This document shows, piece by piece, positions 21,854 through 56,500 of a stretch of 64,000 bases of DNA; position 1 is the stretch's first letter; the number at the start of each line of letters is the position of its first letter. This DNA comes from Blasia pusilla. Lineage: Eukaryota. The notes under the pieces are model-generated. The model worked only from the letters and a program-made list of their open reading frames with translations, did not search any database and had not been told where the DNA came from. The stretch is taken from assembly GCA_050084515.1 (NCBI GenBank), contig CM114271.1, positions 30,256,001 through 30,320,000 on the forward strand. Direction: 5' to 3'. The position numbers were made by a program, and so were the translations under genes.

Positions 21854-21855
21854 CA

Positions 21856-21867
21856 TGGTATCAAAGC
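21856..21867 (+). promoter_or_regulatory. Primer-binding site complementary to initiator tRNA-Met
   Basis: TGGTATCAAAGC, 2 nt after the LTR end; one mismatch to the canonical TGGTATCAGAGC. Confidence 0.85.
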
Positions 21868-28540: not shown

Positions 28541-28615
28541 AGAGACACAGGGAGATAGCGAGAGCGAGAGAGGGAGAGAGAGAGAGAGAGAGGGATAGAG
28601 GGATAGAGGGATAGA
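28541..28615. repeat. GA-rich microsatellite just upstream of the MCM5 fragment
   Basis: Imperfect (GA)n run ending about 10 nt before ATG 28625. Confidence 0.8.
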
Positions 28616-28624
28616 GTTTGAAAG

Positions 28625-32846: not shown

Positions 32847-35800
32847 CCAGTTGCCACATGTCAAGAAGAGAGGTGTTTGCAAATCAAGAAGGCACTCTCC
32901 CATAATAATATAGATTATATAATTAAAAGTGAAGCATTCTTCCACATCTGCTAATTAAATTATAAGTTAATTTTGATTAATGAAATTATTTCACATTGAT
33001 TTTCCTTTCCCAAAATATCAAATGTAATTTTTTTTAAGTAAGCATATTTTTAATTTCAAAATTTAAGACAAGTAAATGTGATTTTGAGAAAAAAAATTAT
33101 CTTGAAGAACTTTGGAGATCAAATTTTTCTTTCCACATATCCTCTTGATTGTTTCAAATTCGGATTTTCCTTCTAACTACATGAAGATTTAGATTTCCCT
33201 TAATACTTAATGAAAGAAAATTTAGAATTTAGTTGCCTAGAATAGGGAAGAGGAGTTTAAACCATAGTGTACTTCTTTAGCCCCCATAGTATGAAAATAT
33301 TTTCTTGCTATTTGAATACTATATGTCAATCAAACACATGACATTGTTTGAAAATAGAGAAGGGGTTCTACCATAAAAACCATAGACTAGTGTTCATGGC
33401 CGTGCCAATCACTCGGCATCTAGGAGTGCTACAAAGGCACTTCTTTCCAGCTCGCACGGTTCTCTACGACCTTTACTTGCCGTGCCGAGCACACCAAGTA
33501 AAGGTCTCTACAACCTTTACTGAATGCTCATAATGTTGAGGTAGTGGAATTTAGTATGAATGAATTGATGTGTGACCAAAGGACACAAGGACCAACTATG
33601 AGTTGAACAAAAAGAGGGAGTAATGCAAAGTAGTACTCGGCTGCCCGTGCTCTGCACTGGGCACCAAACAATATTATTGTCCAGATAGTAGCAGTACATG
33701 CTGGAGCATGGAGCATGTGATAGGACTCGAAGGGCTCCCTAAAAAGTGTCCATGAGGTAATTTTGTGTGTTATGAGGAAAAGACAAGAAAGTGTAACCAA
33801 ACCAAGGACACTTGGCAGCCATTTCCAAATTTAACTCCTCCAATGACCAAACCCAATCCATGTTTTCACTTTGGGCAATCCTATCATTAGTGACATTCAT
33901 CTCGTGTTTATACACACGACTTTGCCACCTCTTTCCCCACGTTTGTACCTGTAACAGATGATGATTATAAATTCTTAAAGTATCACAACCCATCCTCGGG
34001 GCTCGGAAGTACGATGAAGACTGGGAAGATGCCCAATATAATGGGCATCTTCCTAGTCTATTAGAACATAGATGGTACTTTGAAGCCATCCTACTCAATA
34101 CTTTAGATACTTTAGGCACTCTTGTTGAAAAAGCTCCCATATGATTCCATGGAGGATCGCGTTGCAACAACCGTTTCCAAGTCCTGCCATTGTGTCCAAG
34201 TTTCCAAGTACAACCATGAAAACTTCGTTCGAGAAAGCCATGAGATCGATTCTGCAAAAAGTGCAGTCTAGAGGCAAAGAGGGAAGAAAATTGGTATTGG
34301 AGAGGGTTCTTTTACGATGGGGATCGGAGGACGGCAGTAGGGAGAAACGGTCTCATGGCGATGATCGCCTCCTCAAGCTGCGCTCCCTGATGTGCTGTTT
34401 GACAAATAGGAGTGTCTCCAGTTTCCAGATTCAGATGATCAGTTCCTGGCCCCGAAATGTTTGGGAGGAAAATGAAATGCAATGCAACGCTTACTTGAGA
34501 TGTCGACACGCCAACAGATCCCTGGCAGTGTATGGCCTGGAGCTTGAACAGCTACTCCTCGCTCCCACTCCAATTCGATCGTGGGTTCCGCATGAACTAC
34601 TCTTGCGCTCTAATCTTAGGCTCCAGCGATCGTTTCCCGTCAAGCTGTAGGCGCAGGATGGCGGTGTATGTGCGTGTGTGCACTCAAGCGGCCATAGAAA
34701 CAACGGCCACAAACACCCATAAACATAAACCTTCAACACGAATCTTGAGACCACTAGATCGAACCATCTAGGAGTATTCCGATCCTAGACCCCAAATACA
34801 GGGAATGATTAAAAGAGGGCAAGAGAGAAGAAGCTCTAGGAAGTGCTTGTACGCTGGAGAGATCGAGCAGGTGTAAGTAGAGTGCAACAACACCCATCAT
34901 CCTTCAGCGGACATGGAACTAGAATCTACCGATCCGATGCACAGAACAAGACGCACAAAGCATGAATCTTACACCCCGAGCCACCATTCATCAAGTGATG
35001 TTCATCGCTGTCTGGCAGTCGACAACGAATCTGCAGATACCGAGTAGTCTGGAAACAGAAGTAAAGGTGACAACCTATGTAACACTGCTGTTCACGATCA
35101 AGGAACTCTCGACTCATTGACCGCACCGTTTGCAGAATTGAACGATCGTTTGTAGAAGGGTCGATTGACTTACTGGCGGCCATGTCGAGTCGATTCGAAA
35201 GTAGTGAGGCTACCTTGGAGTTGCACCTGTGGGAGGGATAATAGGTCGTGTGTTATATCCGAATTTCGACCTTCAGCGGAGAGACCATGATGTCCCCGGT
35301 GATGACCAAGCTCCATGGATCCCAACTTCACGAAGATCCCAGGACCGAACTCAAGATGGAACAAGTCAGCACAGTCAGTCGGCTTGAGTTCGTCCAAGGA
35401 TGGAAAGGAAACCTGCTTTCGGCAGACAGATCCATGCAGCCCAGTTCGGAAGAAATGAAGGATAGATCATGAAATGAGGCACCTCACCAAAACGGTGTTG
35501 GTTTACATGCCCACTTCAAACTAGGATCTGTCAATTTCAGGCCAAACTAGAACGAGCAGTACGTGATTTTAATGCAAATCTCGCTTAGGTGGCAAAACGA
35601 ATTAGTTCTGTTGAACTGGTGAAGTGACTTTCATTCCAGCAACTCCTAGGAACAATCGAACTGTAAAGAGAGACCTACACAGGTGACCAAAAACAGATAA
35701 ATCTCCACAAGAACGGAGAACCATCTTCTTGTATTCACGAAAGACGGACTAAAACTGCAAAGCCTACTCACATGTGCAGCAACTGTAGTCCCTTATTATT

Positions 35801-36191: not shown

Positions 36192-39100
36192 TCATTTGCA
36201 ACCATCCAAGGATGTACACAAGGCTTCATAATCTGAGTTACTGTACAATGAAAACACTTCTTGCCACCAGGTCTTTTTCCGAAGGTGATTCACACCCATG
36301 TCTTGGCACAGCTTGTCAGAGTGCCAAATCTGGATGAGACCCACACAAGATCTGGTGAAGTGGGGTCTTTTCTCCTGCACGAAATGCACCCACTTCCATC
36401 TCTCTGCATCCATGATAGCAGTGCTGGGAAGGCTGAACTTCTTCTTAAGCAATTGTCCCAACCATATGGCTCCCATCTCGGATGAGTGCACACTAGAAAA
36501 GCCCTCCAAAAACCCAATGAAACCCATGTTTGGAATATGTGGATGAATGACGCCTCTGCACAAGTTTTGGACGGGACGTTAGGAAGGAGACGAAGGATGA
36601 AGAAATTACAGAACAAGCCAAAACCAGGTGGCAGTTGCCTATAAGGCTAAGGAATAGCTCATAGCACTGCAACCACTTCAGGAGTGAAAGGCGGTTCATC
36701 CGGGAGCCTTTCAGATCTGATTCCACACAGGACTGGACTTTTCTGGTGGAGGTTATGGCCATCTCCGAAAGAGAAGTTGCAATGGGCAGAAGCTCCAAAC
36801 CTAAACTCATGTGGGAATGATGATAAATGTAGTTTCATTCCTTTCACATCAAGGCAACATATCCAGTCATACACACCAGCCCAGACCGGACCAGCACAGC
36901 ATCCTGAAAGAAAACGTCATGCTATCTAGTCCTTTACCACTTTTGGTTCCCTCAAAAACACCCCAGAGGAAGTTCGGACGTGTGCTGTAAGTTAAAGCAC
37001 CAAGCCAGAGTCCAGATCTCGGAAATACCTGTACAAAGACAGAATGTTCTCTGATTCCCAAAGTACATTTCTGTACTTCTCGGGAAACATAGCCGTCAGC
37101 TTTGCATCACCGTCGTACCCTGTACACAGAATTACAATATCTGCCACGATATCTGTTCCATCAGCCAGATGGACCCCTTTCGGGTAGAAATTGAAGTTGG
37201 GAGTCCTCTTCGGTATGATGCGACCATTCTCTAAGTGACCCACCAGAGTCACAGGTAACTGTGGGAGAACACATGATGACACGTCCTGAAATAAGGAGTG
37301 CTCTGGCACTAGCCCAAACCGTGAAAAGGGGATAGTAAGGCGAAGATAGTATTCGACCATCTTCCACAATCCCCAGCTCTGCACGCATCATTCGGGAAAC
37401 CGACAATGAATAACCGTGTATGATAAAAAAGCAGGGAGGTGAAATTCTCGTATCTCCACCTACTACTTCTACGGTGACATGAAACAATTCCTACTTAACA
37501 ACATGGGAAAGAGATAAGGGCAGCTCACCACAGGATGAAATATGCACTGTAGAGCCCGCTGTAGAATGCCTTCACCAGGTTTAGTAGTCCAATAGCCAGC
37601 GAACCGTGAACTGAAGAAAGCAGCGAATGGGAGAAATCCAAACGCTTGCCTATGCCGAGGGTATACCCAATGTGTGCGCCTGAATACCAGGGTACAAGGA
37701 GGTCCATTTATTCCTGTTGTATGCCATTTTGGAAACAGCAGGCAAGGCTTGGTTAACTCAACATCCAACGAGCAACCATTTGAACGGGTCATCCATACAA
37801 CTTCAAGGACGGAAACAAAGGAAGTCAATGTCGTTCACATGCTGGAACAGATCTTGAGATGTCAGGTTGGAACAGGCTATTGAACCTGGTCCATGAGAAG
37901 TCGGACTCATGAAAGCTACCCGAGCTGCTTATTTAGGATACACACTCTGTTTCATCTCCCAGATTGCAACCCCGACCTTCCTTTCACTCAAACTCCTCTT
38001 CATCTCCACACGGCTACAATCTCTAAACCACATCTTCCCACTCCAAATCCATCCCTGGTCCACTCTTTGTCTCCCCTAACTCCTCCAGTCCCGACGGGCG
38101 GACTTTGTCACTGTTCCATAGAGATTAGAATTCCGTTAGTTATACGCTAGACTTAGTAGGTCTGAATGGAGTGGAAGAATATGAGATCTATACTTCGAAT
38201 TTTTGCAGCCTGCGATCCCGGTGGTTACGGTCCTACCCAGAGGTCTCCCGAAACATTCCACTCGGGTTTCTGCGCTACGATGGCGTCTTGCATCAACAGC
38301 TACAGATGTTTGACTAACCAGCGGAGCTCTGTCGCTCACCCGGACACGTCCAGCCTTCATAAATTGGGAGTGAATTTCAAAGGTGTGACATTCATCGATA
38401 CACTCCACTGCAACAATACCCCACCTTGGTTTGCTTCGGCAACTTCACAAGCGACATCTAGAGAAGTTTTCTGGAACCCCACGACCACCACACGCTTTCC
38501 AGCTAGAAAATTGTGAGCACTTTGTGCATCCAGAGCAGAAAACTCCAATGCATGAAGCACGCGACCCTCGAAGACTTCAGGTCCTTCTGAAGGAGGAAAG
38601 GAGGGCACTTTGGATACGTCTCCAAACCGACCGCAGCACACAACCAGATAATCAAACTCGAGCCACTGAACAGACGAAGCTACGGTTAGAGACTGTACTC
38701 AATAAGTAGTGCCAGTCGTAGCCTTGCCTCCATAGCTACACTCAGAAACACTTGCGCTACATGTAACCTTGCATTTCCGCATGTTTGGGTGATCCGCACG
38801 CGTCTCGGGCAACGAGAGCAAGCGCTGACGACAGAGAAACGTTTCATGTGCGGTGCTGGAGTACCTCATCAATGGATGTGCACAATCCGTTGACAAAAGA
38901 AGACTTGCTCTTACGCACACACACTCGCCACACCGAATCACCATCAGCATTACTACTGTCCTCGCCTTGCCACCCACCACCAACACCGGCGGTGAAGCTC
39001 AATGACCCGAGCCCACCTTCCTCAAGCCTCTTTCCTCCATCCAATCCGCAAACCGCACTTCCAGAAGTCGCCTTTCTCTCGATCCCCACCACCTTGCAAT

Positions 39101-39431
39101 TGAAGCGGATCCTCTCCAACAGCCCAAAGTGAGTGGCGTAGCTCTCGAGATAATCCACGACCTGACGGTGCGATGGGAACATGGGCACGGACTCCGGCCA
39201 GGGGAAATCGGTGAACTCGTAACCCTTTTTGGGAGTCTGCAATTTCGTGGACGAGTAAGAGGATCGCCACACTCCTCCCACTCCACTCTTGGCCTCGAAA
39301 ACGACCGCATTGAGGCACTGCTCTTTCAAATGCTTGCAAGTTACGAGTCCGCTCACGCCGGCCCCGATTATAGCCACTCGAAGCTCGCCCTCTCCCCGGC
39401 TCCGCACCTCCGCGTCAACTGACGGCGCCAT
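36192..39431 (-). CDS. Flavin-containing monooxygenase, FMO1-like clade; exons about 39431-38865, 38665-38425, 37713-37529, 37378-37029, 36555-36192
   Basis: FAD motif GAGVSG, GGVW, FMO-identifying motif FEGRVLHALEF, NADPH motif GFQKTS (as in plant FMO1-type enzymes, not the YUCCA GCGNSG), CTGY and LYRGVIHP. GT-AG introns are in phase. Confidence 0.93.
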
Positions 39432-41172
39432 GGACAGATCGGCCGTGCCGCAATTCCTCCGCTCAAACCCAAGCCTACGGAGCGATCCCCATCAATCGCG
39501 AAGCGCTTCCGATCACGCCATGCAATCACGCAGCACCTCCTGCTCCTGCCGGAGCTCACAAGTCCTGTGTTGGGAATTCATCGCCGCCCAGATACAGACG
39601 GACTCGCGGGCACCATCTCTGGGGAGGAGGATCGAGTCCACTAGCTGCACTCCAGTCCGTTCCCATCCAATCCACAGCCGCATCAACAGGACTGCATTGA
39701 AAAGCAGCTCTGGAATGGGCCCGGACTGACTAACGCAACAACCTGAAATTCGACTGACTGACGCAAAATTCTGAAAATTCGAAGATGTGTTCCCATCGAC
39801 GGCATCGGCACACAGCCCTGAGAACAATCGAGGGCTCGCTCTCTTTCCAAGTACGACATCATCGTTTCTCGTCTGCTCGCTTGTCGTCCACCGCAATAGA
39901 ACGCGTTTGCGTTTCGTAACTCGTTTGCACTTTTTGTGTGACTTTCGTTCCTTCTCATTTCTCTCTACCAATTCCAAACGGAAGCTCAAAATCGACCACA
40001 AGGTTATAGGACTTTCTCTTCTCCGTTCTTTGAGCTTTATGAAGGCCGTGAATGATCTACGAGGGAGGATGGAACAAATCATCGGCTGCATAAATTATGT
40101 TATGGATGGCTAGTTTGCGCATGCATGTCAAACACTCTAAACTCTCGACCCAAATGTACTAACCAATCCAAGCATTTTTATTCAAAATATGTGCAATAAA
40201 AAAACTTGTTCCATGTTAAAATAAAATTTCATGTTTCTCTAAAAAAACCAAATCTACTCTAACAAGATATAAGGTTATTCTTGGCTAGTGAACATTAGTT
40301 CATTTGTTTTATGCAAAAGAAACTCAACCAAGGGAAAATGAATTTTCAAGGGAGTGAACATCACAATTCATTGGTCTTATGTTAAAGAGACTCAACAAAG
40401 AGAAAACCCTCTCCCTAGGGCAAGTGGGCCATATCCTTGACCCTAAACATGTAAAAGTGGATCAATGTTCACGTTACATAATCAAAAAGTCAGATTTTTT
40501 GAGAAAAGGAACTTTTCTCAAATAATTCGTTCTAAATGGGCCCAACCCAAGAGAAACTCTATATCTTCAAGCTAACCTACTCCTCAAACATGTCACCTTT
40601 TGATCTATTGGTCTCCATCTCCGGTCTCTCTCGGATCACTGCGGGAATACTCTCTAGTTTGCTACAAAAGAGGTGACAATTGTCATGTGAATGCATAACA
40701 TACATTGTTTTGACTAATCAAACACAAAGAATCACCTATCTGACACATCCGACCATGGAGTTCAAACACAAAGGCAAGTAGCTACCAAGATATCTCCAAT
40801 CCCCTCCCCCTAGTTGGTGATTAGGGCCCTTCGGGATGATCTCCCAATGTCATGCGATGGTCAATCAGTATCTAATCATATAGGTCGCTATTCTATTTAT
40901 GTCCTATTGTGTATGGATGTCGGAATGTTATGATGGCAAGGGATTGTTGGAAATATGATCCCAACAATAGGTGAGCGATCCTATTGTTTAAGAGTGCCAA
41001 GTAGAAACTTATGTCCTTTACTCCCATCTATATCTTCTTCCATATTTTATTCTATATATTATATAGAATAATTCTCAATATCTCAATAACAAACACTTAT
41101 GTATCTGACTCTTGTCCTTTTAGATGCCCTCTAGCTACGTCACCTATTCCTTAGATCTAGCTTTGTTTCCTC

Positions 41173-41540
41173 TGTCATGACCATACGGATTATGTCGTAG
41201 AGTATAGTGTGCTAGTAGAGGCCATACCTTATGTAGGGCCGTAGTGTCTAGGTAGAGATGCGGTTTCATACATAGGGTTGGGGATTACTTAGTTAAGGAT
41301 GACTTTTCCAGTAGGGCCCGCTCTTAGGTTGGAGAATATAGTGTGGAGTGCACTCAAAGAACAATTAGTTCTTTGAGTTGAGCCTGTTGCGTTGGGAGTT
41401 AGCCTTGGTAGTGAGTAGAGCTCTTGGCTATGGTGGTTCCCGCAAGCTTCGACCTGGATTCTCCCATCGTGAAGAGGGTTTGGCTCGATTGTATGTGAAT
41501 GTATACGTGTTTTATGACAGTAGGTCTTTCACGGATTTCA
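41173..41540 (+). repeat. Repeat A1 (368 bp), left terminus
   Basis: Direct repeat of 50474-50841, with about a dozen mismatches by eye. Confidence 0.95.
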
Positions 41541-43025
41541 CTCAAATAACTCGGGTAGCTTTGATTGTGGATCAGTAGGATCTGGTTTGGGCTGATTGTG
41601 TACTCAGCCGTGGATGTTTGTGGCTTGTGGCCTATGTTGGAGATGGTAATCTGGTGCATGGTTGGTTGGGAAAGAAGCGCCATGCTGAGAGCTTTCCAAA
41701 GCACTTTAGATCGCCGGAGTTCGTCAAGGGAGTTGGAAGTTATCAAGGATTGAAGATTCTGGTTCGTGTTCGACGGTTTTCTGATGTGGAGAGCTTGGAG
41801 TGCTGAAGCTCTGTTGAAGTTCATCCAGATCGGGTGAGAGGTTCCTATTGCTAATTGTATTGTGATCTCATGTGAAGCTATCTGCTTGAGTGTGTGGAGC
41901 GTTGCGGATTTCTGCGTGCATGAATCTAGGCGGAAGCGTTGTCGGATTTGCGATTCTGGAGGTGTATGGACAGCAAGTTTGTCTGATTTTTAGCTCAGAG
42001 TACAAAGCTCGGTTGTAGCTGATTTTTTGTGGAGAGATAGCTCTGATGGTCAATTAAATTCTGGTTGAAACAGATTAAATTTTGGTTGAGTATTTGTGGA
42101 GTAATTTCTGATCAAAATTTCATGATGGTGGACAGCAGATCGGAGGGGCTGGTTGGTTGGTGACTCGTCCGATGTTGGAGACACCTATCCCGTTGGGGGC
42201 GCCCTGGTTGGACCTCTCTCCATAGCGAAGCATGGCAAAGCGTGGCAAACGGGGCATGTCTCGAGCATTTCTCGGCGTTTTGAGGCTTCGAGGCAACTCG
42301 TGGTAGCTCGGGGTGAGTGGGCGTGAGAGGCGGAGTAAGGAGCAAGCAAGCAAGCTTGCTTGCTTGGGCGTGAGGTAGTGTTTGGAGGATTTGTGATTTG
42401 AGTGTTGCATAATTGGTCATCTATCTTTGGGCTATTCTGCCTGGAAGACTCTTAACTGCTGAGTTCTTAACTATGCCAATGTACACACTAGTGTAGCTCA
42501 TTTGGTGGTGTTCGGAGATGTGTTAGGCGCTTTATGCATCTCAGATTTTTGGTTGATAGACCTCTAGCGCATAGTATGGTGTAGCCTCTCCATGCAGGTG
42601 ATATTTTCAGATGCTACGGGTCCAACTAGCACGTCATCGACCCGCGGCAGAGTAGCTATTGCGTTAGAATTGTATGGTGGTTTCTGTGGATTCAAGGGGC
42701 GCCACATTTGGTGGATTGTGTTACCTTGATTTCCATTTGCGATTGGAGGGTTGTCGTTGGACTTCCTGTGTTTGGATCCCCTCCATCGTTGCTTCTTGCT
42801 TGCGCGCCCATTGTTAGGGTTGACGCTGATTTCCAAAGTAGTGTTACTCCTGTGTGCTACCGGTAGTGAGGCTAGAGTGATGACCAGTAGACCGTGGGAG
42901 GCTTCTTGTGGTGATGACAGGTTAGGTTGCCTACACCCATAGCTAGTAGAGCTAGAATAGTACAGCCACATCGACGTCACTTGGCTACTTAGTGGTGGTA
43001 ATTTGGTGGTGGTGCGGCATCGGCG

Positions 43026-45590
43026 TTGGTCATCACGGAGCTCTCTGGTGGTCTGGTTGGGGACGGTGGTACGGACAGTGGTGGTTTCACACGGAGTGGA
43101 TTGAGGTATCGGCTATCTTTTCCACTTCCAACGGTTGATGAAGAGGAGGACGAGGGTGTTCCAAACACTGAGTCTTCTACGTTGTTATCGAGTGTTGCAT
43201 CTCCATTGATTTGGGACATGGATGGGATATATGGGGCCATGAAGGGCCCACGACGATACTCGAGTGCAGTGGGCACCATTGAGTTGGAGGACTTCATGCA
43301 GGAGTTTGATACGTGGTGTGATATGCAGATGTTGCGGAACGTCACGTTGTTTACACCTTTCTTGGCTTGGAAGGGGTTGTTTCAGCACTTGGAGGGACCA
43401 CCCATGGATGATTACCATGAGTTTAGGAAGGACCATGTTGCTGAGATTGAGGTGTGGAGACAATATTGGTCTCCAGGCTATGTGTCTATCACCCATGGTG
43501 GTATTGGTAGTAGTGCTCCTACTATGCCAGCCAGCCCGACGTTGAGTGGTACGAGTACGAGCCGGAGTGGGGGTACCAGTGGAGGTACCCATGGAGGTAC
43601 CAGTGGGGGTACTAGTGCCCCACCATCGTTCAGCCCGGTTGCAGAGTTCTTCAAGAGGTTGAAGAAGAACTATCACTGAGTGAAGACAAAGAAGTTGAGG
43701 AGCCTTTAGGAATTTGAGCGAAAGACTGGTGAGAGTCTTCGTGAGGCATACACTCGTATGCGACGCTTGATTTCAGTTACCCAGGGTGTGACTGAGGCTC
43801 AGGCAGTCCAGTTTTGGTATGGGATCTTGGACGGAGAGTTGCGCCGGAGGGTACTCTTATGAGTGATGATTCACCTACATTGACCCATGTGTTTGCTCTA
43901 TCTGAGAAGATTGAGCTTAACATGGTGAAGGAGAGAGTGGTGACATCCGCATTCAGTAGGGATATAACTACTACTTCTTGTGTTCAGCAGCCCACCTCAC
44001 AATCTCGTAGTAGTGGTGGTGGTAGTAGTAGTGGGAGTCGTGGGGGGTACACACGACCTCAGTCAAGTCCTAGAGGGACACTTGCGTAGAGACCATTGCC
44101 TTTATTTGCTGCCCCGCAGCAAGAACAGTCATGATGGACATGTGGAGGTGATCATGTTAGGAGGTTTTGTCCCCAAGAGGATGGGAGACGGACTTTGGAG
44201 GATGGGCCTCAGTCGGCCCCAACTCAGTGTGATCATTGCGGGAGACCAGGTCATCCTCGAGAGCGTTGCTTTGATCTTCATCCAGAGTTGAGGTCACGCC
44301 GTGGCCGTGGTGGAGTAGCTCCGAGAGGCCGAGGTGGTAGGGGTGGTAGAGGTGGACCAGTGGTTGGAGAGCCTACGGTGGCCACCCCTACCACTCTGAC
44401 AAGTCGACCTATGGTTGCCGAGATTGAGCTTGATTGGAGAAGAAGTTGGCTACTATGGCTGGTATCGAGCATAAATGAGGTTTGGGAGCAGGGGCTTCCA
44501 TTTCCTATGGAGGGGATGATCTCTCTTATATGGCAAGTGCAGCACAGGTTGAGGCATTAGCTGCAGTTACGAGAGGAGCCACTCGAGCGTTAGAGCCACG
44601 TGGTGCTATTGTGGAGTTGGACCCACAGAGGGGTGAGGCTGGGAGGCAGGCTAGGCTTGCCCAGTCATTCTTGTTGTCTGAGGTGCTTAGGACTCCATCC
44701 ATGGTTCTTACGCAGCCTATTGAGCGGCGAGTGGGGATCGAGGCATCTACATCGCGTGTAGTAGACACGGATGCAAAGACATCGATCAAGATTGCGGATG
44801 GCAACTTAAGTGTTGGGATCCCCATTGTTTTCGGCCACGGAGCTGATGGCTTTAGGAGTTGACTTAGCTCCTGCATTTCAGCTAGCAGCCACGTTGTATG
44901 AACATGGGGTGTATTCTTGCTACGTCTTTGAGGTGGATGAGGGTGTTGCGGTGAAGCGACCCTCTATGTCAGTGTAGCATTGAGTACGGTGCTACTTGGC
45001 AAAGCGGCGGCGAAGATGGATGCATTACCAGCCCGGCCAGCCATTGATCGTGAGAGGCTTACACCTGGTGTATGTATGTTGGACAACCGGAGTGGGATAT
45101 CCGATTGGTGAGTCCTACAGGATAGGTGTATAGCCCAGATAGAGTCTTGTTAGACTCTGGTGCCCAACCTTTGATGTTGGGAAAGGCAGCATGTATTGGT
45201 TTGGGTATTCGGAGGTCAGAGCTTAAGCCTTGCCCATTCCAGATTCAAACATCACTTGGATGAGCCAATGATAGGTCTTAATTCATGACACGGGAGAAGT
45301 TGTCTGTACAGTTGAGACCAGATCAAGCGACTGATAGCTCCCGGTTGGGAGTACCTGCAGTGGTCACATCAGCCGAGTCATATGATGTACTAGTTAGAGG
45401 AGCAATATTGTACCCGATGGGTTTTCAGATGGACTACTGGAGTGAGACAACGTCTTATAGACCTGGTTGGCAGTCCGGGGATGGACGTATGAGCCAGGTT
45501 CCTGTGAGATTTATTTATGGGGCTCGACATAGAGGGTCTTCCCCAACGGTGTTAGCATCTGTGGTTGGTTTTAGTGGAGTAGTCACCTGA
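43026..45590 (+). pseudogene. Gag and aspartic protease region of the split-repeat element, disrupted
   Basis: Gag-like ORFs (ELEDFMQEFDTWC; GESLREAYTRMRRL), one degenerate and one intact CCHC knuckle, an RG-rich tail, protease RVLLDSGAQP and downstream YDVLVRG. Contains stops and frameshifts. Confidence 0.75.
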
Positions 45591-45881
45591 CCAGGAGACT
45601 TTTTGGAGGGTAATCTTTCTGCTATGGATTCTCCAATGCATGAGGAGGTAGAGGAGGTCCCTAGTTTTGTAGCAGTGGCATCCTCATCGTTGGATGTGCC
45701 ACTTTGGAGTTCAGGCGGTGCACTACGGCAAGAGGCTGATCGCCTAGTGCCGGAGGCTTGGTGTGAGGTTGTTATACCTCATGAGGAAGAGGAGGCCCCA
45801 CGGCGGACTCCTACTTCTGGTCTAGTTGGGTTATCCCCTTTGGATACTACACCCATTGTATGGCAGTATCCGCCGGAGGGC

Positions 45882-46830
45882 ATTTGTGTGTTAGATCTCT
45901 TTGGTGGGATAAGCATTGGTTTGGCTGCAGTGTTGCAGATCGGTATTCATGTGCGGAGATACGTGTATGTGGACCCAGATGAGACGGCCCAGAGAGTCTC
46001 ATCCCGACATATCGGTCAGTTGATGCGGAGATATCCTGAGTTGTTGCCGCCATCAGCTATTCGTGGGTACCAACATGCTTTGCCGTCACACATTGCATTG
46101 TTGGGGGCGCAGGACCTTGAGAGGGTTGGTCTTGTGGATTTGGTGATTGCTGGATGGCTATGTCACGCTCATACACGTGTTGGTCGTGGTGAGGGATTAT
46201 ACGACCCTAGTTCTCGATTATTTTGGGAGATGTTACGGGTGTTACGACATCTTCAGGTTCATTAGGCACGTGCTCCAGCTTACATTCCGGAGAATGTTCC
46301 ATTGTTGGGTGACACTCGGACCCGGATGATGGCGAGTGTTCATGAGGTACGGTCTTGGATTGGACCAGCGGTATTTTTGGATGTGCACGCGAGTTGGCTC
46401 GCGTGCACATCGTCTATGCTTGTGGTGGACAAACTTGTTGCCTAGGGAAGTTCTACGTCAAGCATATGATGCACTGCAGCGAGATCCTTGCCTTACAGTG
46501 GATAGTATCTTGGATACTGGGCCACTTTCTCAGGTGGTGTGGTTATTGATCGGTCACCCATGGCAGTGGTGAACCGTGTGGGCCAGCCTAGGATGGCACT
46601 ACCCACATTTGTGAGTTTTCCCTCGTCACATGCCTACAAGGAAGGTGGTCCCAAGTTTGTATGGGATTCTCATGTGCGACAGTTGGTGGAGCCTAACGCT
46701 GATGAGAGAGAGCGTGCGATGGGATTTGCTACTGGTGTGACAGCGGTTGCTTCCATTTCTGAGGCTTCACGACGTCACCTATTGGGTCAGGCCATGGACC
46801 TGAATTGTTTGACTTGGATTTTGAGTCTTG
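45882..46830 (+). pseudogene. Element-borne C5 cytosine DNA methyltransferase domain (DNMT3-like), disrupted in this copy
   Basis: Motifs in canonical order: I VLDLFGG (45888), IV DLVIAGWLC (catalytic Cys at 46161, preceded by CTA where Pro is expected), VI ENV (46290), VIII GSRAHRLCLWWTNL, IX ERERAMGF (46704), X RRHLLGQAM (46770). One in-frame stop at 46263, plus frameshifts. Confidence 0.88.
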
Positions 46831-47081
46831 GTATGGCCGAGCAGCGTCGATTTCGGACTATGTCTGTGGGTCTTCCACCCCTTGTGATGAGCTCGATGGC
46901 TACCGGGACGGTAGAGGCATCGGCTGGGGATGAGGAGAGTAGTATTTTGCATCCTTGGAGTAAATGGGATGTAATGGCTGGGCATGTGGAGTTGGTTGCT
47001 CATGCTGGTGGAGGAGTTATTTTCTCAGATGATGGTATAGCTAAGGGTGTACCATCTTGTGAGGGGGTTGCGTAGCAGCCA

Positions 47082-50000
47082 ATGGCGTCGTCATCTCCCT
47101 CTAGTGTGTCAGTGGAGGAGACTTGGGAGCCATTACTTGGGCCCAAGCTTACGGGAGGTGAGAAACGACGCTTGACACAGTTCCTACGTACTTATAGGAG
47201 TTATTTTGCCTTTAGCATGAAGGAGTTGGGTGCTTTGGTTGGACCCGGTATACGGATTGATTTGGCTAGTGATACGCCAATCTTTCGTCGTCCCTACCGA
47301 TATAGTGATATGGAGAGGGACGTGATTCAGAGTAGGACGTTGGACCTTTTGGAGGCTGGATTAGTGGAGTTGTCGCATGGAGAGTATGCATCAGCCACTA
47401 TCATGCCTGCTAAAAAGGATGTGCATGGCAACTACACGGATAGGCGGATGTATGGAGATTATCGTCCTATCAATCGGCAGACCAAGGCTGATAGGTATGC
47501 CATGCCTACACCTGAGGAGATCTTTGATGTGGTGGGACAGGCAAAGATTTTTAGTACTTTGGATCTTCGGGCAGGATACCATCATTTGCCGATTAGAGAG
47601 AGTGACAAGGCCAAGACAGCATTTTGGGGTGTCAACTCTCATGGCAAGGATTGTTTGTACCAATGGAAATTCTTACCCTTTGGGTTGAACAATGCACCTG
47701 TCGAGTTTCAGAGAGTGATGGACAGGATCCTAGTAGGGTTGGATTTTGTTCGGTGTTACATTGATGATATATTGGTGTTTAGTAACATGGTGGAGGAGCA
47801 TCCGATACATTTTCAGATTGTGTTTGAGCAGTTGAAAGCTCATGGTCTACGTTTGCATCCAGGAAAGTGTTAGTTCTTCCATGAGGATGTTGAGTACTTG
47901 GGTCATGTGATCTATCCAAGTGGTTTGGGATTTTAGCAAGCAAAGGTGGAGGCTATTGCACTTATTCCTTGTCCGGTAGATGTGAGTAGAGTTCGGGCAT
48001 TCATGGGATTGGCGAACTACTATCGGAGGTATGTGAAGGGATTTAGTGCTATGGCAAAGCCTTTGAACCAATTGTTGAAATCAGATCAGGAGTGGCACTG
48101 GGGAGATAATCAGGAGAGAGCTTTTGTGGAGCTCAAGGCCCAGTTGGTGGCGGCGCCTATCTTGAGGAGACCTATCAGAAGGCGCCCATTTCAGTTACAC
48201 ACTGATTGGAGTAGGTTGGGACTTGGAGCGGTGTTGACACAACATGATGATGAGCACATGGAGTTTGTGGTGGCCTATGCAAGTCGTTCGAATAATGCAG
48301 CGGAGTCGCGCTATAGTTCATATGAGGGAGAGTGCTTGGCAGTAGTGTGGGTTGTGGCACACTTTAGGTGTTACTTGTTTGGCACACAGTTTACCCTTGT
48401 TATTGATCACCAGCCGCTCAAATGGTTGATGGAGTCTGACAAGCTTACAGAGAAGCTTGCACGGTGGGCTCTTATCTTACAAGAGTATGACTTCCAGGTG
48501 GTACATAGACCTGGAGTTGCCAACCTTGATGCTGATGGGTTGAGTAGGAACCAATGTACTAGCCAAGAGGATGCAACAGGGGCTAGATGGCATGACGAGG
48601 TTGATGAGGAGATGGTGCCAGGTTGGCATGCATCTGCCTTTTTATGTTGGTTAGGGGTGGACTCTAGTATGGAGGACCACATGATATCTTACTCTAGTCA
48701 GAGGGTAGATGGCCAGCCTTCAGATCCTAAGGTTGGAGATGGTAGTACGGATCAGCGTGACATTCATGATGATGCGTTGGTGTTGGAGCTCGTACGGACC
48801 AGTAGGGTGCCAAGCATAGTGAGTGCCAAGGAGCGAGACCGTGTTCTTCAACGTGCTAAGAGGTATCGATTGGAGGGAACACATATTCTCCGTGTGTGGG
48901 ATGATGGTAGAGTACGAGTAGTGCCGCATTTGGCTCAGAGTGAGCGCATTGTGTGACATGCCCATGAGGAGTTGGGACATTTTGGGGTAAAGCGTACGTA
49001 TAGCTTACTCCTTGGTGAGTATTGGTGGCGTGGCATACATACTCAGGTGCAGCAGTTGGTGTCACGTTGTATGGTTTGAGACTGGGTGAGGGCATCATTC
49101 AATGCCCCTACACCACAGTTACACCCCTTGCCTATTATGGGGTTGGGTTACCGTTGGAGTGTGGACTTTGCGGGACCGTTACGTGGATTGGTATGCGACA
49201 TCATCGATATGTATTGGTGATGGTGGAGCACTTCTCCAAGTGGATTGAGTTGGTGGCATTACCTAATAAGGCAAGTGAGGGAACGGCGTATGCGTTTCTT
49301 GATAGAGTTCTTAGTCATTTTGGTGCACCAGCTGAAGTGCTGACCGACCAGGGTACATAGTTTCAGGGTGAGTTTCAGGTCTTGTGTGACAAGGCGTTGA
49401 TTGATCATCAGACCACGTCTCGAGATCATCCAGAGGCGGATGGTTTGGTTGAGCGTGTGGTTTAGACGGTGAAGAGGGCATTGCACAAGTATGGCCTATA
49501 GAAGGAGCATCTTGGAGACTGAGATATTCAGTTGCTATGGTTAGCCATGGGGTATAGGTTCAGTCAAGGATGCTTGACTTCCTTCTCACCTTATTTTTTG
49601 TTATACGGCCGAGATCCAGACTTGCCCGCAAAACTTTGTTGGGAGTCTAGTGAGGTAGTGAACCTTGATGACCCAGAGATGAGGATGAGAGTGTGTTCTC
49701 AGCGGGCAAAGCTCTTTCGGAGAGTTATGCCAATAGCCTTTGAGAATCTTGCCATACTCAACACAGGGATACGTTGCGATATGCAACCATTCGGGGTGGA
49801 GGTTATCGACCATAGATTCGTAGGTTCCATGTGGGGGACTATGTCTATTTGCAGCAGATTGCACCGACAACGTTGGATGTGACGGCAAGCCGCACTATTT
49901 TATGAGTGCGAGAGGTGTTAGCTTTTGGAGTTCTCATGTTGGAGGGTCGCGATGGAGTTTTTTGGAAGGACCATGTGCGTAATTGTGCGTCATGTCATAT

Positions 50001-50199
50001 TCCAAATGCGGATGGTACTGTTGACCCAAGTTTAGCCATGATACGTGCTAGCTTGAGGTGCATGTTGTGTAGGTCTGCTCGTAACGCAGCCCGTATGTTT
50101 GTGTGTGATCGGTGTTCTAGGGGTTGGCACATGATGTATTTGACTCCACGTATGGATGTTGTTCCTATTGGAAGATGGGTTTGTCCTCGATGTACTTAG
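47082..50199 (+). pseudogene. RT, RNase H, DDE integrase and C-terminal PHD finger of the split-repeat element
   Basis: Motifs DYRPIN, FSTLDLRAGY, LPFGL, YIDD, TDWS, YASR, DHQPL, integrase HHCC and D,D,E, and PHD CMLC...CDRC....H..Y...WVCPRC at 50059-50193. Confidence 0.9.
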
Positions 50200-50369
50200 G
50201 AGAGTTAGATGACTTGATCTTTGCATGATATGGATTACAGATGTGCGACTAACGATGGGGCAACCTAGCACCCGGCCTTCTGATTCGTGCACCCATGAAG
50301 GTGTATAGCATGTAGTAGATGTATAGGGCTACTTGGAGGGACCTAACCGCCAGTTAGAAGGGCGAGTTT

Positions 50370-50471
50370 TGGTACACTTGTGTTTGTGTATGCTCTCGTC
50401 TATGTTATGTATGTATGTGAGTATGGTATGTCAGCAATGTATGTTGTATGACAATGTGGATTCGCAAGACA
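50370..50471 (+). repeat. Repeat B1 (102 bp)
   Basis: Direct repeat of 50846-50947; ends in CA. Confidence 0.95.
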
Positions 50472-50473
50472 GC

Positions 50474-50841
50474 TGTCATGACCATACGGATTATGTCGTA
50501 GAGTATAGTCTGCTAATAGAGGCCATACCTTATGTAGGGCCGTAGTGTCTAGGTAGAGATGCGGTTTCATACATAGGGTTGGGGGTTACTTAGTTGAGGG
50601 TGACTTTTCCAGTAAGGCCCGCTCTTAGGTTGGAGAATATAGTGTGGAGTGCACTCAAAGAACAGTTAGTTCTTTGAGTTGAGCCTATTGCGTTGGGAGT
50701 TAGCCTTGGTCGTGAGTAGAGCTCTTGGCTATGGTGGTTCCCGCAAGCTTCGACCTGGATTCTCCCATCGAGGAGTGGGTTTGGCTCGATTGTATGTGAA
50801 TGTATACGTGTTTTATGACAGTAGGTCTTTCACGGATTTCA
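50474..50841 (+). repeat. Repeat A2 (368 bp)
   Basis: Direct repeat of 41173-41540; starts TGTCATG, 2 nt after B1. Confidence 0.95.
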
Positions 50842-50845
50842 GTGG

Positions 50846-50947
50846 TGGTACACTTGTGTTTGTGTATGCTCTCGTCTATGTTATGTATGTATGTGAGTAT
50901 GGTATGTCAACGATGTATATTGTATGACGATGTGGATTCGCACGACA
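50846..50947 (+). repeat. Repeat B2 (102 bp), right terminus
   Basis: Direct repeat of 50370-50471; ends CACGACA and is followed by the TSD. Confidence 0.95.
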
Positions 50948-52577
50948 CCTCTAACTAGCTTGGAAAATGGTGCAAAGAGAAGGACTCGGTGCTCTTCTTT
51001 CACCTGTGCACGGCACGATCACTAACTAGTCTGGCAAAATCTATCTAAAGTAGAGAAAGGGTGTAGGGAGAAGGAGAAGGGATGCAAGAAGAAGGACTCT
51101 TCCTAACCGGTGTGAGATTGCTCACGTATTTTTTTCAAGCATGTGAACATCAAAACATATTTACCTTCAGACACCAACTTGTCGTATAGATTGCAGAAAC
51201 TGTCTTTCGTCATTGTAACCTTACTACTTGGCCCGTGACGCTTGGGTTTCTTCGTGTATGTAATTTCATGAATGGGTTTGGCCTGTGATGTTTGGATTTT
51301 GGCATTGTAGAGTAACTTTTGAAGGTAAATATGTTTTGATTTTCACCTACTTGTCACACATATTAACTTTGTGACGTAGTCTTAAAAGTTTATCTCCCTA
51401 GATGTGAATATGACTTGCTATGTTCGTTCTTGACCAATAGGATCACAAGTGTGGACTTGGGATCTCATTGGAAATGCCTCACTTATTTTTAGTTGTATAG
51501 TGCTCAGTTCTCTGTCCCCGTGTTTGTAGCGGCCATCCGATACAGACCTTTTTACATGTGTGTTACTTATGATAATATATTCGTATCAAAGTTTGTGCTC
51601 TGAAGCGCTACCTCGTAGTTCCCCTTCAAGTCTCTTAGAGTGCAAGGGTACAACATAGCACTCCTCCAGTACTAGGGTTACTATGTGGTACTACTTCAGA
51701 CAAAGTACCCTTTGAGAGTCTCTATGAGTATTAGGTGTCACGTATGCAGTACCCTATTACTACTTCATTTTAAATTTCTACAAGCATTAATTTATTTGGT
51801 TTATAGAAGGCTGAGTCACCCTACTATGTGCCCTTTTTAGCCTCTTATACGAGCCTACATCATTGTGGCGGGCTTATGTACATTACAATTAAACCCGAAT
51901 GTGAAAGTTCAAGCCAAGGGAATATATGGTGAAGTATGTTAGGGCAAGGAATATAATACACACACGTTGTTGTCATTTCCTCTTCTAGAATTAGAGATAC
52001 TATGCAGTCTGGACGTCATCCTTATCATGTGCATTCAGGATGACATTATTGGAAGTTTGAGTTTAATTTCCGGGATTTGTGAGGACGAGAGCTGATGTGG
52101 AGCGTTGTCCATTCCGGATACAGACATCCTTGGGTGGAGCGAGTACCACACAAAGGGAAGAGAGTCCTAACACTCAATAGAACTTCAGATCAAATCGGAT
52201 GGTGTTAGTGAATTCTTGTGGCCTAAATGTGTCTAAAACATCTCTTTATTTGCATTGAAGTCCACTATAGACCACAAAAACACGTGCCCAAGAACAGACC
52301 AGACAGTGTGCAGAAGTCCACATTCCATTTATATAAGGTTAGTTTGGAACTTGTAAGTTAAACACCTCGCATAATATAAACATACAATGTCAATGCGATT
52401 CGTTCATGCTGAGAGTTTGCATTGATCAATAGAGAGCTAGCATTCTGATCAAATTTCATCAAGAGTTAGGTTTTCTAATGTTATGAATGCATTCATTACG
52501 ATTTCTTGAGTGGCAATGAAGTGAATCAATCCACAATCATGGTTAAGAAGGAGATTCTTACCCGGAAAAAGGTTATA

Positions 52578-53539
52578 TGTCGTGCACCTACTCTCTTTGA
52601 ACGTCAATCTCTAGTGTTGAGGAAGCATACATTCAATAGGAAATGCTCGCACTATTGATCTGCACCCAAACACACTCACGTTAGTCTGGTATGGATCAAT
52701 CTACCTTCCAACCCACCGAGTTCTCAACTCAGTCATACATCAAGTTGAACCTCCCCTCATTCCTAGCTTCCCAACACGGGAAAGTCTTTCGAGACTTGGG
52801 ACAAAATTTGTGGTTAATCTAGACACGTAAAACGGCATTTGCGCGCCTAGCGATCCCAATTATCCAATGGACCTCGTATGAGCCCCAAACCTAAAAGCAA
52901 GTAAATGAGTTGCGGGATGGAATCTAATAGGGACCTCCGAAAACCACTCTATTGGACTTGGTTCACGTTTCGAGTCCCAACATCAAACTCCTGATCCATT
53001 CTGTGCCCTTGAGTCGCCCCGTGGCGCCCCAAATTGGGGTTTGAGTCCCAAGCACCCTTGGAGACCTTACTAGTATTTTTGGGGATTCCCGCCCTCCCCC
53101 TACCTTTGGGGAAGAGACCTTCGGGCTCCTCTTTTTGGCCCTCAACCCGACTCCCTATACAATAATTTTTGGCCAATATCTCAGCCTTTGTTTATTCATT
53201 TACTAATATCTTTCATTTTTTTGAAGTGACTTTACATAAGCTTTCCAATGCCACCTTATTAGTCCCAAATGCATCTTGGGACTAAAAGTTATGATCCAAA
53301 ATACAGTCAAAATCCTAAACGCTAGTCACGTTCCAAATCCGGTTCTCACTTCTTTGGCAACCAACCTTCCTAGACTCGACTCCTCTCAAGTCTTGGTTTA
53401 TGTTTGGTCGAGGTTTCCTAGTTGCAAACATAAACGCATGAAATGCTCAACCTTGTTCGTGTCTCATCTTTTGTGTCTCTTGCATGTCTTCCAAGAGATC
53501 ACTCCAAGGCGCAAACCATTCTAGGGTGAGCCCGCTAGA
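52578..53539 (-). repeat. Diverged solo LTR related to the 20880-21853 LTR, inverted
   Basis: The reverse complement aligns with the LTR at both ends and internally (GCTGAGATATTGGCCAAAAAT; GAGTAGGTGCACGACA). No clear TSD. Confidence 0.8.
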
Positions 53540-56500
53540 GTCATGATGTTACGCTTGCCGCTCGTTTGGTTATGAGGGTTGCAAAATTTTAGGCGCTATG
53601 ATTAGAGACCAAGGAGTTCCTTTCAATTTAAATTCCGTATAGGCCATTTTTTGAGATTATGGGATGAACTTTAGAGTTTCGGCTCAAGGAGTGTACAAAA
53701 TAAGACTCAGTGTAAAACTTGCAAGGAAGGAGAGCGCACTTCTAGATTGGATGCGATTAATAGGATGTGGTATCATTGCTAATGATACGTACTTGATGCT
53801 TCACCTTTTAGACGTCGATAATGAAGAAAACTATCATGTTGATGTTACCTAGTTGGTTGTTTATGGACCTAGATTGAATTATGGAGTTGAAAGTCTTTCC
53901 AAAATTATCCAAAAGCTAGTTTTCAGAGGTCCAACTTCATCAGACATTCAACATATTTCTATGTTTTTTAGAGAGATCATTTGGGTAGTTATTGGGATTC
54001 CTACCGTTGATTTTACCTTAGCAATTATGCTACGAGAAGACACAAAGGTAGAGCAAATTGGTTTAGGGAAAGAGACGACAATTGCTCATCTAGCAAAGGT
54101 TGTAGACTCTGCTTTAGAGTTTGGATTTGTTGTCATTGTCTAGGAGAACAAAGCTTGATGCAAGGGGGACCCAACTATTGATTGAGTTTGGGAAGCCCGC
54201 AAACAACAGGTTGTGGGAAGAGTTGGAGGATCTTTACATTCCAAACTCAGTCTCCACTTTGAAAATCTTTCGCTTGGAAGTGAACGATTTCAAACTCGCC
54301 CCTCTTGACATTAAAGCAAGGATCTTTATTAGGAGAGAGTGAATGCATTGATGCACAATCTCTCGGGGACGAGAAACATCATTGTAAGAAATACAAACAA
54401 TGGTATTGTTGTCGTGTGTACATACGATCTTTCTAGAGCCTTGGATGAATATCAAAGACGATTTTTTCAGAAGTCTCCCGTGTATAGTAGTATGGGGGGG
54501 AAGATTGTCCCGAGAACCCGCTTAGTTATTTCAGCCTCTCATCCCTTCACAATCAAGTGGACCCATGCGCCAACAAGATGGAGACTTTGATAAGGATGCA
54601 GAAAGCCACTTCCGGGCACACATGACCACCATTGAGTTGGCAGCAATTAAGAAGATCGGGAAGAGGAAGATTCGAGAAGTGGTGGGTAACATTTCCTTTG
54701 ATTCAGGATTGCTATTGTAGTACTATTAAAATTGAATTAAGAAATTTTTTTGAACTTGAGTTCTCATCAGCTATTTTGGTCCTAGCCACAAGGAGATCAA
54801 CAAGTCCTTATACAATTGCTCTTCCGCCACATGGAATATGTAGCATGCTATGATGTTTGCATACGAGGAAGGTAAACTCACAACACAAGTTGGTCTTATG
54901 TACTCCAAGTACAGACATAAGACTAGCGTTGAGAATAGGTGATTGAAGAAGACCAACTTGAGACCACTGCAGGGGCTTGGCAGAGACATGCAATGTGGTT
55001 CAAGTTGTAGAAGAACTCTTGAAATTAAGGGTGCAAATAAGGCCAACATCTGCTCGCAAACTACAAAATGAAGACTTGATCGACCTGAAATCCTATTGTG
55101 ATAAATGGAAATGCAAACAAGTCAATGTAGGCGCCATTTATAAATTCTTCTTATCGGAGAGGGAATTCACTACCGAGAGAAGTTGTCAGGATTACTTTGA
55201 CGAGCTCGTTTTGCAATAAGACTTCTTTGTCAATGATGCCCAAATTCTCCTTGATATTCTGCTGGAGGAGAAGATGTATTTGAAGAAGCATCTCTCTTTG
55301 GCACACAAGCCAAATTTGGTCTTCCTCTAGAAGAATTCAACAAGACTTTGTGGAAATTAATCAATTTGCAGAGGGCCAACAAGCCAAGATACGACTTTCT
55401 TGTGTCTACATACAAGGAAGTTACTGCTAGTCTTGATATAACCTTCCCGGGATTTTTCTGGACTATTGTATGTACGAAGGTAGTAGGCAATGATTGGGGT
55501 CTCTTTTACGACATCATATTTTCAAATATGGTTACCACGTCGGATGATTAGAAACGACATAGCATTGAAGATTTTGAAGAATGTTTTGGCAAAGGATGTC
55601 GCCTTAATGCAAAAGAAAGATTGTTGGTGTTTTTCACAAAACACTATGGAATTTATAGTAGCTTGCTAAAGAGCATCAAATCTTTGGTTTAGAGTAATTC
55701 CTTATATAGTCAAATCCAAAGAGACAAAAGATCCAAAGTGGAGGATGTTTGATGATTGTCATCGTAGTATTTAGCAATGGTTTTGATTAGTCTACTCAAG
55801 ACCAACAAGTAGCCACTCTAAATAGAGTACTTGGCAAAAAAGTTCTTCCAACGTCCTTAAGCGACGCAAGGATTATGATCAACGAGGAGTATAGATTCCT
55901 TCCAATCCTCAAGGAGAATGAGTTTTGAATGGGTGACCCGGTGGAGATTTTCAGAGGGTTGTCCAAGGTTGGATCGCGGAAGAATGCCATCATGATCAAT
56001 CTAAGTTTCCATGTATTGGAAACTTTATTGGTGAGTTGCTCTTTTGGAACTAAAGTTGTGATATTCCCTTTTCATGGTCATGATGGTATGATGTATTGGG
56101 GCCTATGTCTAACTATGGCTGATTTCCACAATCAAGACAACGAATTCAAAGGGAGGAGTGAAGGTCATGAAGTGAGTTCCTTGCATCTATATTATTATTG
56201 GAGAGTGTTTTTTTATTTGCAAACACCTCTTTACTTGTGGCAACCCCGTAGAAAGAAAATGTTTCCTCTTTTAAGGGCAGAAAAAAAAATTTCCCTCTTT
56301 AACTCCCGTAGATGGCACTTATCCCAACTAGTATGACATCGACCCCTCATTTTACACGAGAGAATAGTGGTTAGGCAACTCCTGGTTTGTCTAGCCACTC
56401 TGCCCAAATTATCTCCACACCACACAGGTGGGAGAAAATACCTTAACAACAAGAACCGAGAGCGGGGCCAATCCGGAAATGGTGGAGGTAATGTCGTCCG

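Follow-up and report, generated by a model that had tools for sequence, protein, structure and literature searches.

Retroelements are commonly classified by their repeats, and in this scheme the A..B-A-B arrangement of split direct repeats is taken as the signature of a tyrosine recombinase and equal long terminal repeats (LTRs) as the signature of an integrase. One published element combines the two. KnitGypsy-Dnmt3 of Klebsormidium nitens is described, in the legend to a figure, as having DIRS-type repeats with Gypsy domains (de Mendoza et al., 2018; PMC5890265, Fig. 4c). The integrases of foamy virus and HIV-1 have been reported to cut the palindromic LTR-LTR junctions of two-LTR circles (PMC1180852, PMC1905944). 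Here we describe an element to which both reports are relevant, found in a 64,000 nucleotide stretch of Blasia pusilla contig CM114271.1 (assembly GCA_050084515.1, positions 30,256,001 to 30,320,000), which is referred to below as the window. The element occupies positions 41173-50947 and is an old copy from a Ty3/gypsy family of bryophytes and their relatives, in which reverse transcription is probably ordinary and the integrase probably cuts an internal junction of abutted ends in a joined or circular complementary DNA (cDNA).

A permuted repeat layout with integrase-type ends

The repeats of the window copy were located by repeat search and BLAST and their borders by direct reading of the sequence. 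Over 368 nt, A1 (41173-41540) and A2 (50474-50841) are 96.7% alike; for B1 (50370-50471) and B2 (50846-50947) the figure is 95.1% over 102 nt. Neither search found a further copy of A or B in the window. The A1..B1-A2-B2 arrangement reported in an earlier note on this DNA was thus recovered where that note had placed it, and direct reading likewise bore out the outer ends, TGTCATG...CACGACA, and the perfect 4-bp target site duplication (TSD) that it had described. At the left border CCTC (41169-41172) is followed by TGTCATGACC, giving A1 an integrase-type TG end, and at the right border GCACGACA, with which B2 ends in ..CACGACA, is followed by a second CCTC (50948-50951). The chance of a perfect 4-bp match at fixed borders is 1/256. 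Integrase-type ends and TSD bracket the whole of the asymmetric A..B-A-B, which was therefore correctly recognised as a single integrated unit. One detail of spacing did not survive. The two bases GC between B1 and A2 (50472-50473) stand, and the 4-nt gap (gtgg) that the first alignment left between A2 and B2 does not, since comparison with relatives moves the start of B 5 nt in the 5' direction. With B 5 nt longer at this side, B1 covers 50365-50471 and B2 50841-50947, and A2 and B2 abut directly with one base in common. All four repeats lie on the plus strand. In reverse-transcription terms A1, which ends in ..TTTCA, is the 3' part of U3 (unique 3' region) together with R (repeated region) and U5 (unique 5' region), and B1 is the 5' part of U3. 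B1 ends in ..CAAGACA, an integrase-type CA end, and the GC spacer separates this end from the TG with which A2 starts, forming the abutted-end junction that is central to what follows. The window copy itself is old, inactive and decayed, as is evident from the 3.3% divergence between A1 and A2 and from many breaks in its reading frames.

Relatives were identified by scanning metagenome contigs with an alignment of the DNA methyltransferase (DNMT) part of the element. This yielded 80 loci, 41 of them with A or B, which represent a sister lineage on short-read contigs. The A and B of the window are 70-84% alike to theirs. B-A-B was found at the 3' end of five independent loci with flanks that are all different (L025, L050, L067, L069 and L073), and L050 is a complete A..B-A-B copy (A1 6255-6591, B1 14889-15003, A2 15008-15344, B2 15344-15458). 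In L006 the contig ends inside A2, and L077 (identical to L075) shows B plus a partial A. At the other side of the element 21 distinct 5' ends could be compared, leaving out L008, which is cut by the start of its contig, and the duplicates L030 (of L029) and L043 (of L042). B stands before A or directly after A in none of the 21, and neither AB..AB nor BA..BA was seen. Rather than equal LTRs, members of the family have A alone at the 5' end and either B-A-B or B at the 3' end. The A..B-A-B layout is a trait of the family and not a one-off. The earlier note had looked to independent insertions with this layout and their own 4-bp TSDs for confirmation, and to ordinary AB...AB copies for its undoing; the five B-A-B ends, among them L050 with the TSD CATA, supply the former, and no case of the latter occurs among the 21 distinct 5' ends.

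The borders of these copies are as regular as their layout. A perfect 4-bp TSD of its own flanks 6 of the 7 copies with two readable ends, that is the window copy and five of six metagenome copies (L050 CATA, L029 TGTT, L032 TTCA, L078 ATTA and L060 CACA), and in the remaining copy, L026, three of the four bases match. The family thus has TG..CA termini (TGTCATG..CGACA) and a 4-bp TSD, within the 4-5 bp typical of Ty3/gypsy elements. The junction between B1 and A2 reads ACA-NN-TGTCA in 7/7 readable cases, counting the window, where NN is GC in four, AC in two and AT in one; on the A side of this junction L050 has TATCATG. The abutment of A and B is precise in 6/6 copies, with one base shared.

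A second integrated form, A-internal-B (A-int-B), is also present. In 11 loci (L020, L022, L023, L026, L029, L032, L036, L054, L057, L061 and L078) a single B is followed by unrelated DNA, and four of these also have A1, with TSDs that are perfect in three and match at 3/4 bases in one. Collapse of the repeats during assembly was rejected as an unlikely source of this form because decay is equal in A-int-B and B-A-B copies (longest open reading frames (ORFs) 99-467 aa) and because no A-like remnant follows B in any of the 11 loci, where the only matches were noise at E > 0.01. The A-int-B copies may be primary products of integration or later deletions between B1 and B2. As they have no 3' R, they should be a dead end for reverse transcription. 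Some loci depart from these forms: L007, L014, L022 and L023 are without a normal A1, and in L060 (identical to L058), at 13534-13822, an inverted fragment of A precedes A positions 178-337, after which come the primer site CTCAAAGAA, a further 4-5 nt and B. With its perfect CACA TSD, L060 looks like a mis-joined cDNA end that integrated.

Coding content, priming signals and transcripts

The order of domains determined by tblastn is gag, protease, DNMT, reverse transcriptase (RT), RNase H, integrase and PHD finger. Every frame of the window copy is broken, the longest ORF being 339 aa, and on the ORFs that remain Pfam recognises RVT_1, RT_RNaseH, rve and a PHD finger. All of the coding regions are on the plus strand. 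A gag with two CCHC zinc knuckles (43218-44300, frames broken) is followed by an aspartic protease (45099-45400, with VLLDSGA at 45153), a decayed Dnmt3-like C5 cytosine methyltransferase (45591-47057, with LCH and not PCQ at motif IV and ENV at 46290), a reverse transcriptase (47124-47873, with YIDD at 47757), RNase H (47937-48500), a DDE integrase (48735-49756, rve core 49019-49360, frames broken) and a C-terminal PHD finger (50059-50193). Within gag, at 43568-43612, three 12-nt tandem units encode a stretch rich in Gly, Thr and Ser. The order protease-RT-RNase H-integrase and the Ty3-type RT and RNase H are those of Ty3/gypsy elements, and the nearest solved chains are Ty3 RT for RT/RNase H (4ol8, E 4e-48) and Ty3 Gag-Pol for the integrase (7q5b, E 1.2e-8). 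No Pfam match to a tyrosine recombinase (Phage_integrase or other) was obtained on the plus-strand ORFs, on six long minus-strand ORFs or on nine leader ORFs, and on the minus-strand and leader sets no other Pfam family was found beyond one sub-threshold match to a domain of unknown function (DUF). Pfam scans and structure matches therefore agree with the first description of a Ty3/gypsy-type element with a protease and DDE integrase and without a tyrosine recombinase. The Dnmt3-like methyltransferase and the PHD finger had been overlooked in that description. No chromodomain was found at the C-terminus of the integrase, where the PHD finger stands in its place, as it does in a wider clade of related proteins.

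In the methyltransferase, the ORF at 45591-46265 gives a weak Pfam DNA_methylase match (E 0.17) and is 60-71% alike to 30 proteins of 396-1333 aa, the majority of which carry PF00145. Named sources among these 30 are Marchantia polymorpha, Calypogeia fissa and Sphagnum; no protein named as from Klebsormidium occurs among them or among 73 matches from the wider clade. Pfam DNA_methylase is present on the relatives P0004 and P0015, the nearest solved chains are DNMT3A and DNMT3B (E about 2e-6), and in intact relatives the DNMT motifs, RT, RNase H and integrase lie together on one polyprotein. In the wider metagenome clade (P0206 and about 30 other proteins) DNMT, RT, RNase H, Integrase_H2C2, rve and PHD are combined. 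The DNMT of P0206 has RNase H before it and integrase after it, whereas in the family of the window it stands between protease and RT, which suggests, from the domain order, a move of the domain or a second capture. Viral contigs gave no match to the protein of P0015 or to the hairpin DNA pattern described below.

The signals for reverse transcription are placed in accordance with the terms given above for A and B, and the 3' repeat is preceded by a PPT and the 5' repeat followed by a PBS, as in Ty3/gypsy elements. A polypurine tract (PPT), agaagggcga (50356-50365, plus strand), lies directly 5' of B1, and its counterpart AGGGGGGCG precedes the PPT-adjacent B in 17 of 19 readable metagenome loci, the exceptions being L057 and L061. 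Reads from organism A (the label of the best-matching DNA run, with 0.30 of this stretch's words) have a majority G at 50358-50359. At the end of A1 there is a putative self-priming primer-binding site (PBS), ACTCAAATAAC (41540-41550, plus strand; family form ACTCAAAGAAC), and CTCAAAGAAC or a one-base variant follows A directly in 21 of 24 5' copies, including the one-mismatch copy of the window. This conserved site is not of the tRNA type with TGG. Priming by tRNA was ruled out, since a TGG-type site is missing behind A and 40000-52000 contains no tRNA gene.

A complement of the PBS, GTTCTTTGAGT, is found inside A with at most two substitutions in 18 of 21 copies, at position 196 of the window A. 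A TATA-like AATATAG (41335-41341, plus strand; TATAAAG in metagenome relatives) lies about 32 nt upstream of this 11-mer at 41368. The complement is the second arm of a conserved hairpin (41352-41378, plus strand) whose first arm is ACTCAAAGAAC, the two being separated by a loop. A same-sense copy of the primer site thus stands 3-5 nt before its complement, at 41352-41378 and 50653-50679 and in relatives, and the hairpin falls at the predicted border of U3 and R. In the RNAalifold consensus the two 9-11-mers, PBS and complement, pair around stem-loops of U5. In the self-priming of Tf1 the PBS is complementary to the first bases of the RNA. The arrangement of PBS and complement described here is predicted, on sequence grounds, to serve self-priming of the Tf1 type, as has been predicted for the plant Tcn1 clade (Neumann et al., 2019; PMC6317226).

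Further evidence for the limits of the transcript came from RNA run X18 of organism A, in which 1049 reads showed a strand bias of about 20:1, consistent with sense transcripts. These reads are mostly 90-95% alike to the window and so derive from copies other than that of the window. Depth is 130-240 in the internal part, 90-110 in B1 and about 150 at the start of A2, falling to 43 in the last bin of A2 and about 2 in B2. Loose ends that run past A into primer-site sequence were seen for 28 RNA reads and 39 contigs. The transcripts comprise internal region-B1-A2 together with A1-leader and hardly any A2-B2, which fits an RNA with both of its ends inside A. In organism A the family is highly repeated, with 33,293 contigs aligned in run X1, a depth of contigs that is not readable as copy number; organism B also carries the family.

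Routes to the permuted copy

From the layout, the ends and TSDs, the positions of PPT and PBS and the RNA coverage, we infer a circular or joined substrate, self-priming and cutting by the integrase. RNA would extend from A1 across the internal region and B1 as far as A2, and its reverse transcription would be primed by the RNA of the element itself, in the manner of Tf1, by way of the 11-mer inside A. Since the PPT precedes B and the PBS follows A, ordinary strand transfers would then produce a cDNA whose LTRs read B-NN-A. These LTRs do not themselves terminate in an inverted TG..CA pair, their ends being GTTGTGG.. and ..TTTTCA. The sole inverted ends of that type are found where A starts and where B ends (TGTCATG and TGTCGTG), two sites that are abutted inside the LTR (..CGACA NN TGTCATG..). 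The integrase would join these two ends to the target with a 4-bp TSD, and the integrated copy would be a circular permutation of the cDNA. Cutting of the junction in a cDNA with joined LTRs, resembling a two-LTR circle, would yield A-int-B-NN-A|B, and cutting in a one-LTR circle, or at both junctions of a linear cDNA, would yield A-int-B. The exact abutment of A and B in 6/6 copies is the outcome expected from the joining of two cDNA ends, and that integrated copies begin and end at the internal junction with 4-bp TSDs points to cutting of the encoded junction by the integrase. We regard this account as the probable one. The further proposition, that the lineage obligatorily integrates a circularly permuted genome from joined or circular cDNA and not from linear ends, with the LTR-encoded abutted junction as its attachment (att) site and self-RNA priming, is put forward tentatively, and we incline slightly to doubt it. 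The non-canonical replication cycle proposed in the earlier note is thus upheld in part: the family-wide layout makes a non-canonical step very likely, but reverse transcription looks canonical and the oddity lies in where the integrase cuts.

Several observations weigh against integrase cutting of a joined or circular cDNA. The chief of these is that the mirror product A-B-A-int-B, which would be expected from a random cut of a two-LTR circle, is found in 0/21 distinct 5' ends. Its absence could reflect faster loss, the A repeats being longer and closer together in such a copy, or it could reflect a templated route. No circular or joined-LTR cDNA was observed, and this step is reached by reasoning from the integrated copies. 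The other permuted copies come from a sister lineage, with A 70-77% alike to that of the window, and not from the window's own genome, and in L009, L011, L028 and L035 there is no B at the expected place though the contigs reach there. The A-int-B form in 11 loci could equally be explained by later deletion between B1 and B2. With regard to the RNA, about 2% of the depth reaches B2, and 30 read starts pile up at 50635, a position 34 nt upstream of where the TATA-like motif would put the start, which makes a TATA-directed 5' end of the RNA, and with it strict Tf1-like priming, less certain. The pairs of 11-mer and PBS are invariant and do not covary, and so give no proof of pairing.

The templated route just mentioned is the alternative that survives best, and we consider it unlikely. 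An ordinary linear B-A..B-A cDNA would be cut at the junction in its left LTR, and B2 would be added when RT switches template from the end of A onto B across a 1-nt overlap. A templated switch predicts an exact A|B joint with a shared base, as seen in 6/6 copies, and this route accounts for A-int-B-A-B alone and never for A-B-A-int-B, which matches the 0/21 count. No data point to such a switch, however, and to our knowledge a third jump of that kind has no precedent among LTR elements. In retroviral two-LTR junctions precise blunt joints are the commonest, which also counts against this route.

Joining of cDNA ends must also be set against the possibility that A-int-B is the basic unit and that B-A-B is a head-to-tail tandem with an internally deleted A-B unit, produced by host recombination or repeated insertion. 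A-int-B with its own TSD is indeed the commoner form (11 loci compared with five complete B-A-B), but in both the window and L050 the TSD flanks the entire A..B-A-B, the spacer between B and A is invariably 2 nt and RNA is continuous over B1-A2. Moreover, A-int-B has no 3' R region, and reverse transcription by strand transfer would be impossible for it alone. A tandem origin is accordingly quite improbable. We think it very improbable that a tyrosine recombinase acting in trans integrates a circle as in DIRS-like elements, with the DDE integrase a mere relic. The A..B-A-B layout is certainly described as a hallmark of PAT and Ngaro (PMC4157794, PMC8969392), but no tyrosine recombinase was found on any scanned ORF, the integrase and PHD finger are retained over a wide clade, and the perfect 4-bp TSDs of 6/7 copies with TG..CA ends differ from DIRS elements, which are described as being without a TSD (PMC8969392). 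Slightest of all is the prospect that an ordinary LTR element was rearranged once, or wrongly assembled, at the window locus, where the join of B2 to its flank has no read support (0 of four aligned runs at 50981-51074; in the 51075-51121 bin X2 alone leaves a trace of mean depth 2, and its contig is listed as beginning at 51098), for the TSD brackets the whole unit, and the recurrence of the layout in five independent 3' ends and one complete copy, with 0/21 distinct 5' ends ordinary, refutes it as an explanation for the family.

Surroundings of the element and its place among known systems

A second Ty3/gypsy element, of ordinary structure, lies at 20826-32847 of the window. Its repeats (21187-21854 and 32188-32847) are 88% alike, ORFs for gag, RT and RNase H are found at 22047-24884, and a tRNA-Met-like site, TGGTATCAAAGC, directly follows the left repeat. 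At 52575-53582 the repeat recurs in reverse orientation, in a related form that is about 70% alike, and comparison with it extends the left repeat back to 20826. At the left of the window a pair of repeats (1-1764 and 6804-7797, 82-92% alike) includes a partial tandem duplication (242-827 and 830-1427) and may belong to a further element with unusual ends. An inverted repeat at 51127-51362, 175 nt downstream of the permuted copy, has 43-nt arms that are 84% complementary and 150 nt apart; it resembles a miniature inverted-repeat transposable element (MITE), and one X2 contig has an opposite-strand joint there. Fragments of host genes at 13897-14640, 17649-18584 (minus strand), 38847-39491 (minus strand) and 57698-58633 encode parts of a K+ transporter, a BAHD-type acyltransferase, a flavin monooxygenase and a GTPase of the EF-G/EF-Tu type.

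The family matters in several respects. Software that finds LTRs on the rule that they are equal will miss or mis-annotate it, and many predicted Marchantia proteins derive from it. It offers a natural test of the old idea that an integrase of the retroviral type can work from a junction of abutted ends, and ties this question to a retroelement that brings along a methyltransferase for de novo DNA methylation and a PHD finger that reads chromatin. If obligate permuted integration proves true, split direct repeats would not be diagnostic of tyrosine recombinases, and the family would be a living model of a step between LTR elements and those of the DIRS/Ngaro type.

The layout is that of PAT, Toc, Kangaroo and Ngaro, in which A1-internal-B1-A2-B2 is a circular permutation of a two-LTR element and a circular or joined intermediate is implied. 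Those elements have a tyrosine recombinase and no TSD, whereas the family described here has a DDE integrase, TG..CA ends, a 4-bp TSD and a Ty3-like RT. It therefore shares with the DIRS order the split direct repeats but neither a recombinase gene, as judged from the ORFs scanned, nor the absence of TSDs. Tf1/sushi elements and the plant Tcn1 clade, as they are presented in PMC6317226, are similar in having no tRNA-type site; here the 11 nt that directly follow U5 are complementary to sequence that lies at the predicted 5' end of the RNA or close to it. They differ in having equal LTRs and a chromodomain, whereas the repeats of the window family are permuted and its domains include a PHD finger and a DNMT. 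The cut proposed for the DDE integrase at abutted CA/TG ends, giving ends competent for integration, parallels what is reported for the two-LTR circles of foamy virus and HIV-1. In those reports the junction is made by ligation of cDNA ends, whereas here the LTR itself would encode it and the RNA would transmit it.

The closest described system is KnitGypsy-Dnmt3. To judge from its published description, with which alone the comparison is made, it likewise has a Gypsy-type Pol with a Dnmt3-like DNMT in the polyprotein and A-coding-B-A-B repeats. Its host is a green alga, whereas the host lineage here is bryophyte-like. The suggestion that the type might be undescribed consequently falls, the layout of KnitGypsy-Dnmt3 having been published in 2018. 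No description of a Gypsy-DNMT element from a bryophyte was found in the open literature, although subscription journals, Repbase or the supplements to PMC5890265 may contain one. The passages of PMC5890265 that deal with KnitGypsy-Dnmt3 are silent on TSDs, on the placement of PPT and PBS, on self-priming, on a PHD finger and on an A-int-B form. The family of the window is thus not a new class but a bryophyte-lineage member of a kind that is on record once, in a figure legend. What it adds to that legend is the TSDs, the logic of PPT and PBS, the existence of two forms of integrated copy and an occurrence in bryophytes.

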